Below the pieces are notes generated by a model. The model was not told the origin of the DNA. It ran no database searches and saw only the letters and a program-made list of their open reading frames with translations. Below, one piece after another: positions 63,779 to 64,000 of a stretch of DNA of 64,000 nt (the first letter of the stretch is position 1; every line of letters starts with the position of its first letter). The translations under genes and the position numbers were made by a program. The stretch is from Escherichia coli (GTDB taxonomy: Bacteria; Pseudomonadota; Gammaproteobacteria; Enterobacterales; Enterobacteriaceae), in assembly GCF_030013205.1 (NCBI RefSeq), contig NZ_CP122648.1. One strand, written 5' to 3'.

Positions 63779-63806
63779 TTGTATACCCACCATAGCCAAG
63801 GAACAA

Positions 63807-63867
63807 CATATTCTCTATATTTTTTCAGTTAATAACTATTCGTGATTTATGTATAGCATCTGGTACA
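63807..63867 (-). promoter_or_regulatory. P2-type Ogr-dependent late promoter (PF-like)
   Basis: The dyad TGT-N12-ACA lies at 63850-63867 (tgtatagcatctggtaca). On the minus strand a TATAGA -10-like hexamer (63819-63814) lies about 39 nt from the dyad centre, which puts the dyad at roughly -50 to -55. Confidence 0.65.
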
Positions 63868-63945
63868 ATCCACAAATGAAGTTAAATTGATTAATTCTCC
63901 TCGGAGAAATTCATTACCCATATGGTGCAAGTTGAGAATCCACAC

Positions 63946-64000
63946 ATGAAACTTAATACAAGAGACGAAAAACAGATAATTATTGAAAGAATGGATTGGA
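63946..64000 (+). CDS. 5' end of an AT-rich ORF running off the window (MKLNTRDEKQIIIERMDW...)
   Basis: ATG at 63946, open to the window end, divergent from the P2 late promoter. Only 18 codons are visible. Confidence 0.3.
   Translation, partial: MKLNTRDEKQIIIERMDW

Follow-up and report, generated by a model that had tools for sequence, protein, structure and literature searches.

Organization of the locus

The window, meaning the whole 64,000-nt stretch of Escherichia coli DNA analysed here, ends within a P2/186-like prophage remnant located between ybjL and rcdA. Of its phage genes, int, CI, a CII fragment, S, V, W, J, I, H, G, D, and ogr remain, and those for head, lysis, and replication are gone. 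The DNA past position 64000 was read in the record of E. coli K_EC180 (NZ_CP062203.1; swine faeces, South Korea; O139), in which positions 3262000–3263000 are 100% identical to window positions 63000–64000. The K_EC180 region is referred to as L001, and its coordinates equal the window coordinates minus 42999. The features at the end of the window are collected in Table 1.

Table 1. Features identified at the right-hand end of the window.
Feature	Position	Strand	Basis and remarks
ogr/Delta-type zinc-finger late activator gene	62396..62614	-	RefSeq annotation; L001 19397-19615
Gene D (tail/baseplate hub), without about its first 7 codons	62705..63731	-	Pfam Phage_GPD, E = 5e-27
FI stub, 47 nt (15 codons + 2 nt), ATG at 63778	63732..63778	-	Fused in frame to D
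FI 5' leader with Shine-Dalgarno GGTGGG and probable pF core	63779..63830	-	Compared with annotated P2 pF; positions inferred
TGT-N12-ACA dyad TGTATAGCATCTGGTACA	63850..63867		Probable Ogr-type activator site of pF, by position
Extended -10 TGGTACAAT	63861..63869	+	Probable acyltransferase promoter, putative; overlaps right half of Ogr box
Repeat copy 1 AATCCACAAATGAA	63867..63880	+	Absent from L005 and L007
Hairpin TTCTC-CTCG-GAGAA in presumed 5' leader	63896..63909	+	Minimum-energy and centroid folds
Repeat copy 2 AATCCACACATGAA	63937..63950	+	Spans the spacer after TTGAGAAT and the start codon
Acyltransferase gene, first 55 nt	63946..64000	+	K_EC180 continuation; Pfam Acyl_transf_3, E = 6e-17

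The preliminary description of this DNA had reported a sharp turn to AT-rich sequence beyond the FI late promoter and an open reading frame that runs off the window on the strand opposite to the late genes. Both observations hold. The GC fraction is 0.31 at 63800–63999, compared with 0.55–0.64 at 63000–63799. The reading frame begins at ATG 63946 on the + strand, opposite to ogr, D, and FI (all on the - strand), and its visible part translates as MKLNTRDEKQIIIERMDW. In K_EC180, the full ORF comprises 1056 nt (351 codons) and ends at window-equivalent 65001, with a GC content of 32% for the whole gene against 52–58% for the prophage backbone genes. Neither an early stop nor genes G/H follow directly past the window edge; the 351-aa ORF precedes G. 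A perfect 12-bp hairpin terminator lies 3' of its stop codon and is common to the converging gene G.

The high-GC gene that adjoins the AT-rich region is not an intact FI. The 364-codon ORF on the - strand at 62705–63799 is a fusion of the FI start and gene D rather than one gene. Its translation from ATG 63778 reads MNDFHHGVRVVEVNEG and continues with ITTVLDNRLMG. The first 16 residues of the fusion are a P2-type sheath FI start, identical to the FI start of strain W13-16 (O139:H1, wild boar), and are in frame with D. The latter is annotated as 'late control D, missing N-terminus', and its homology to other D genes ends at 63731. In W13-16, the FI start and D are 3641 bp apart, with T', E, FII, and FI between them. 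The fusion thus corresponds to a 3641-bp deletion with its junction at 63731/63732 and no microhomology; both end points were read in the sister locus L004. This junction is common to seven complete genomes. A different deletion is found in ETEC4068, in which E' to D are lost, and all sister strains compared have a truncated tape-measure gene. The deletions in the sister loci (L002 11791–11981 and L004 8379–9869) are accompanied by an identical acyltransferase cassette throughout.

The less-deleted sister strains W13-16 and ETEC4068 reveal the gene order ogr-D-T'-E-FII-FI / acyltransferase / G-H-I-J-W-V, with FI on the - strand, the acyltransferase gene on the + strand, and G on the - strand. 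The same slot between G and FI is occupied by fun(Z) in the P2 record, and only about 130 nt separate G from FI in cargo-less relatives. This sister-strain order matches that of P2 and confirms the earlier proposal that the window edge enters the Z/fun position; the slot does contain a cargo gene, namely the low-GC 351-aa ORF. In P2-like phages, the G/FI (Z/fun) slot has been described as a second hotspot enriched in defence genes (Vassallo et al. 2022, PMC9519451).

Several other genes, in the window and in the rest of K_EC180, are annotated as disrupted. In K_EC180, artJ (window 49890–50620), ybjI, the prophage CI gene, O139 wzy, and yoeB are annotated as frameshifted. Three of these, ybjI, prophage CI, and O139 wzy, are intact in sister strains, which points to either assembly indel errors or real decay. 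If wzy is truly broken, the strain would be without polymerised O-antigen. Separately, a pentapeptide-repeat gene at window 44211–45449, between ybjQ and ybjP, is annotated as a partial pseudogene with its C-terminus missing.

Promoters and intergenic region

The candidate core of pF, AACTGAAAAAAT, resembles the P2 pF sequence AACTGAAAAT. The centre of the TGT-N12-ACA dyad upstream of it is 80.5 nt from the FI ATG; the corresponding distances are 83 nt in P2, measured to the annotated activator site, and 84.5 nt in the cargo-less RM10466. The presence of this box at a P2-like distance from the FI ATG supports the FI late promoter proposed previously. TGT-N12-ACA boxes number six in the 41-kb locus, fewer than the 10.4 expected by chance; inside the prophage, they are found only just upstream of FI and V, which represent the two remaining late operons.

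A second low-GC (37%) cargo gene is present in the same remnant. It encodes a 311-aa FRG-domain protein (Pfam E = 2e-19) and is located on the + strand at L001 26654–27589 (window-equivalent 69653–70588, outside the window), between V and S, which corresponds to the orf30 slot of P2. The FRG gene is divergent from V and adjoins a second TGT-N12-ACA box at L001 26616–26633.

On the cargo side, the extended -10 is kept as TGATATAAT and TGATACAAT in two related cassettes with 72–73% identity, L005 and L007. The Shine-Dalgarno-like sequence TTGAGAAT at 63932–63939 is also kept in the upstream regions of both.

The short duplicated motif of the preliminary description, AATCCACA[A/C]ATGAA, is present at both sites and nowhere else in the 64 kb, and the two copies are identical at 17 of 21 positions in an ungapped alignment. 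Its standing as a noteworthy feature is not supported. Nine of 300 dinucleotide shuffles of the same 200–220 nt (about 3%) equal the observed 13/15 match, so that the repeat is only weakly beyond chance; it is lost in the two related cassettes, and several comparable imperfect repeats are found inside the AT-rich acyltransferase gene. The repeat is real and probably without meaning. Copy 1 is overlapped by a mini-ORF, MKLN* (ATG AAG TTA AAT TGA, 63876–63890), and MKLN is also the sequence of the first four residues of the acyltransferase, which are encoded by other codons (ATG AAA CTT AAT). A role of the repeat or of MKLN* as a leader peptide or regulator site was considered and dropped, given that neither is kept in L005 or L007 and that the local significance is weak.

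The hairpin in the presumed leader is kept in L007 and not in L005. A structured leader or riboswitch was also dropped as a candidate, as the presumed leader folds no better than its shuffles (z = 0.7), and an Rfam scan of the region returned only sub-threshold chance matches to snoRNAs. Phase variation by Dam and OxyR through GATC sites is reported for gtr and oafB. No GATC site occurs in 63779–63945, and the region therefore contains no Dam/OxyR phase-variation site of this kind.

Family, conserved residues, and fold of the encoded protein

The product of the edge ORF is an AT3 membrane acyltransferase, as judged from its sequence, and is predicted to be a polytopic inner-membrane protein. 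A single Pfam domain, Acyl_transf_3 (PF01757, AT3), covers residues 17–290 of the 351-aa protein (62.1 bits, cut-off 31, E = 6e-17). There is no other Pfam match and no fused SGNH domain, which makes it an AT3-only protein like the Shigella Oac proteins, and its length agrees with the roughly 330–350 aa expected of AT3-only O-antigen O-acetyltransferases.

The nearest characterised relative is OacD of Shigella phage SfII, with 42% identity over 337 residues and zero gaps. It is the only real relative detected by tblastn (E ≤ 1e-5) among 50,697 phage records. OacD adds an acetyl group at O-6 of GlcNAc in the O-antigen of S. flexneri (PMC9558356). In a 13-member alignment of the subfamily, 45 columns are invariant, and all 45 are kept in the acyltransferase, including K23-X10-H34, H50, F54-F55-F56-x-x-G59-F60-F61, and R80-L81-x-x-P84-Y85. 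Two motifs listed for AT3 proteins are R/K-X10-H, in transmembrane helix 1, and a basic one in cytoplasmic loop 1 (PMC9558356). Here, K23-X10-H34 and the segment K-K-F-K-R80-L-x-x-P-Y after helix 2 both align with SfII OacD.

The AlphaFold model (pLDDT 86, pTM 0.85) is all helical, with about 10–11 long helices, in line with the roughly 10 transmembrane helices expected of an AT3 fold, and a 19-residue hydropathy scan, a crude measure, gives six distinct strongly hydrophobic segments (eight peaks, including two overlapping pairs). A fold search of the PDB returned weak matches (E 0.1–0.3, probability 0.87–0.98, TM about 0.45). At least two of the top four are chains of HGSNAT, and the titles of the other two say no more than 'membrane proteins'. 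The sequence-level PDB search gave no match. Human HGSNAT, the lysosomal acetyl-CoA:glucosaminide N-acetyltransferase, is thus the best match among solved structures and shares the principle of transmembrane acetyl transfer; it differs in being eukaryotic and much larger, with extra domains and only about 10–12% identity.

Relatives and exchange of the module

A large protein collection contains a 23-member cluster of exact copies, two homologues at 72–73%, and then a gap down to about 47%. The two 72–73% homologues are found in non-phage settings, one by a GT8 glycosyltransferase gene and one, in L007, with a second AT3 gene directly downstream. The DNA of L005 and L007 becomes similar to the cassette no more than about 20 nt from the FI start codon, and the similarity extends to about 16 nt past the stop codon. 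L007 (about 2420–2600) keeps a perfect TGT-N12-ACA, and L005 (about 4020–4160) keeps ATGAACGATTT, the first codons of FI, as a scrap of 11 nt. A tblastn search with FI, FII, G, and H around these closest homologues found none of the four, and a Pfam scan of L007 found nothing phage-like. This pattern suggests that the L005 and L007 copies descend from a P2-type Z/fun module, or that the module is subject to exchange with P2-like phages. In other 186-like prophages, similarity is lost at the FI start codon (41-nt matches), and FI starts with MAQDY instead of MNDF. Since similarity stops at the FI start and the FI N-termini differ, the exchanged module appears to include pF.

More distant relatives (40–44% identity) are convergent to the tailspike gene in a P22-like E. 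coli prophage and adjacent to the tail fibre gene of a lambdoid Proteus prophage, and the SfII copy lies by a tail-fibre assembly gene. Conversion genes that modify the O-antigen are typically placed beside receptor-binding genes. A 45% homologue in Leclercia is chromosomal. The search of plasmids gave no match, the IMG/VR scan detected SfII-like copies only, and the scan of species-representative genomes detected OacD only. The representative of the Shigella OacD cluster, P0018, has Tyr at the His of K-X10-H, which SfII OacD and the other members keep; this may reflect either an inactive allele or a sequencing variant.

Distribution and association with O139

The cassette was found in 17 of 5426 complete E. 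coli genomes and is 100% identical in all of them. All carriers were isolated from pigs or wild boar, in Korea, Japan, Belgium, and France. The O139 wzx gene is present in 19 genomes, 17 of which carry the cassette, and none of the other 5407 genomes does. The two O139 non-carriers are VG12A2 and Z1323HEC0010; one is a farm-environment isolate, and the other is a human isolate with a slightly divergent wzx. Because the 17 carriers, with their identical cassettes, look like one clone, as they probably are, the association with O139 effectively amounts to a single event. Purifying selection likewise cannot be inferred from these copies, because they have no sequence variation.

The O139 rfb cluster of K_EC180 contains no acetyltransferase gene. 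The O139 repeat, a heptasaccharide, is described with only Glc, GlcNAc (GlcN), four Rha, and GalA as constituents (PMC4906484), and it resembles the Rha/GlcNAc backbone used by the Shigella Oac enzymes.

Proposed function and alternative explanations

These data suggest that the AT3-only acyltransferase in the Z/fun slot of the prophage probably acetylates the O139 O-antigen and is expressed from its own promoter. The O-antigen as target is proposed by analogy with the closest characterised relative, SfII OacD, from which the acceptor class is not safely transferable at 42% identity because AT3 acceptors vary widely. The acetyl group would be taken from cytoplasmic acetyl-CoA, the presumed donor, and passed across the membrane onto an O-antigen sugar, in this case the Rha- and GlcNAc-rich O139 repeat as the putative acceptor. 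Transcription is predicted to start near 63876 from the gene's own extended -10, overlapping the Ogr box of the divergent pF. Such a promoter would permit expression from a silent prophage. The changed surface epitope could also block O-antigen-dependent phages. Protection against phages by the acyltransferase could then be only indirect, through receptor masking, which is known for Sf6 Oac, PhiV10, and BTP1 OafB (PMC9558356). By its relationships, the gene would be a lysogenic-conversion gene of the well-known prophage kind and not a new defence system.

The analogy with SfII OacD extends to several features. Both are single-domain AT3 proteins of similar length (349 aa in OacD and 351 aa here), both contain the K-X10-H, FFF-x-x-GFF, and R-L-x-x-P-Y blocks in an alignment without gaps, and both genes are prophage-borne and convergent with a tail-fibre assembly gene, with a hairpin terminator at the 3' end. 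In contrast, oacD is located beside gtrII and an IS element in another phage type and not in the P2 Z/fun slot; its host has another O-antigen, and at 58% divergence the acceptor and the acetylated position may differ. The principle proposed here, O-antigen acetylation by a phage AT3-only protein, is also that of Oac (OacA) of Sf6 and the O157 acetylase of PhiV10, which bring about serotype conversion and superinfection immunity (PMC9558356). These two differ from the present gene in being undetected by tblastn at E ≤ 1e-5, and thus belong to more distant AT3 subfamilies, and in lying beside int and the tailspike gene in podoviruses. With fun(Z) of P2, the gene shares the G/FI slot, the orientation divergent from pF, and dispensability for the phage. 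However, fun(Z) encodes a 528-aa protein to which the record annotation ascribes a block of T5 growth, and the two have no sequence or domain kinship.

An active acyltransferase could instead modify another envelope glycan, such as ECA, a capsule or K antigen, colanic acid, periplasmic glucans, or peptidoglycan. The acceptors of the AT3 family do extend to ECA, capsules, periplasmic glucans, peptidoglycan, and other targets (PMC9558356); the distance from OacD and the chromosomal settings of the Leclercia and 72–73% homologues, which are not phage settings, point in the same direction. This explanation is nevertheless considered unlikely, as the sole characterised relative among the phage records searched is an O-antigen acetylase, relatives recur beside phage receptor-binding genes, and carriage is restricted to a single O serogroup.

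Decay of the surrounding prophage, with its missing head, lysis, and replication genes and independent deletions in sister strains, would fit an inert passenger, that is, an unexpressed or functionless relic, and selection is not measurable among identical copies. It is hard to reconcile with a full-length ORF that keeps every family-invariant residue, a conserved promoter-like element, a strong terminator, and a gene that stayed intact in 17 of 17 genomes while its neighbours were lost in at least two separate deletions. An inert passenger is accordingly rated as improbable, below the other-glycan explanation.

The preliminary description had regarded the ORF as the best candidate for a defence gene of the remnant; an intracellular anti-phage function (abortive infection, nuclease, retron-like, or similar) agrees with the defence-enriched slot (PMC9519451) and with a low-GC single-gene cargo that has its own promoter, and yet it is very improbable for a protein with a clear AT3 domain, a polytopic membrane fold, homology to the serotype-converting OacD, no match in PHROGs or NCBIfam, and no PADLOC-DB 2.0 family even at E ≤ 1, the last being the outcome of the PADLOC check proposed for the extended sequence.

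Acetylation of the O139 O-antigen by the prophage enzyme thus remains the preferred explanation. A broader and more doubtful proposal can be built on it. In the O139 clone of pig oedema disease, the prophage enzyme may O-acetylate the O-antigen or a labile surface antigen, a modification missing both from the published chemistry of O139 and from the two O139 genomes that are not porcine. This would then be the first case of a serotype-converting acetylase at the P2 Z/fun hotspot, and it would act as a receptor-masking defence. On the same view, the swapped module includes pF itself, and with the Ogr box overlapping the cargo -10, late activation could preclude expression of the cargo and vice versa.

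Significance

The Z/fun hotspot can hold a probable surface-modifying conversion gene besides intracellular defence systems. The cargo also outlives the phage, in that the cassette is intact in 17 genomes and the neighbouring tail genes were lost separately. Neither of these two points alters the present understanding of such elements. If the proposed function is true, O139 acetylation would represent a clone-specific epitope on the main lineage of pig oedema disease, and this epitope would matter for serotyping, for vaccine antigens, and for selecting therapeutic phages.
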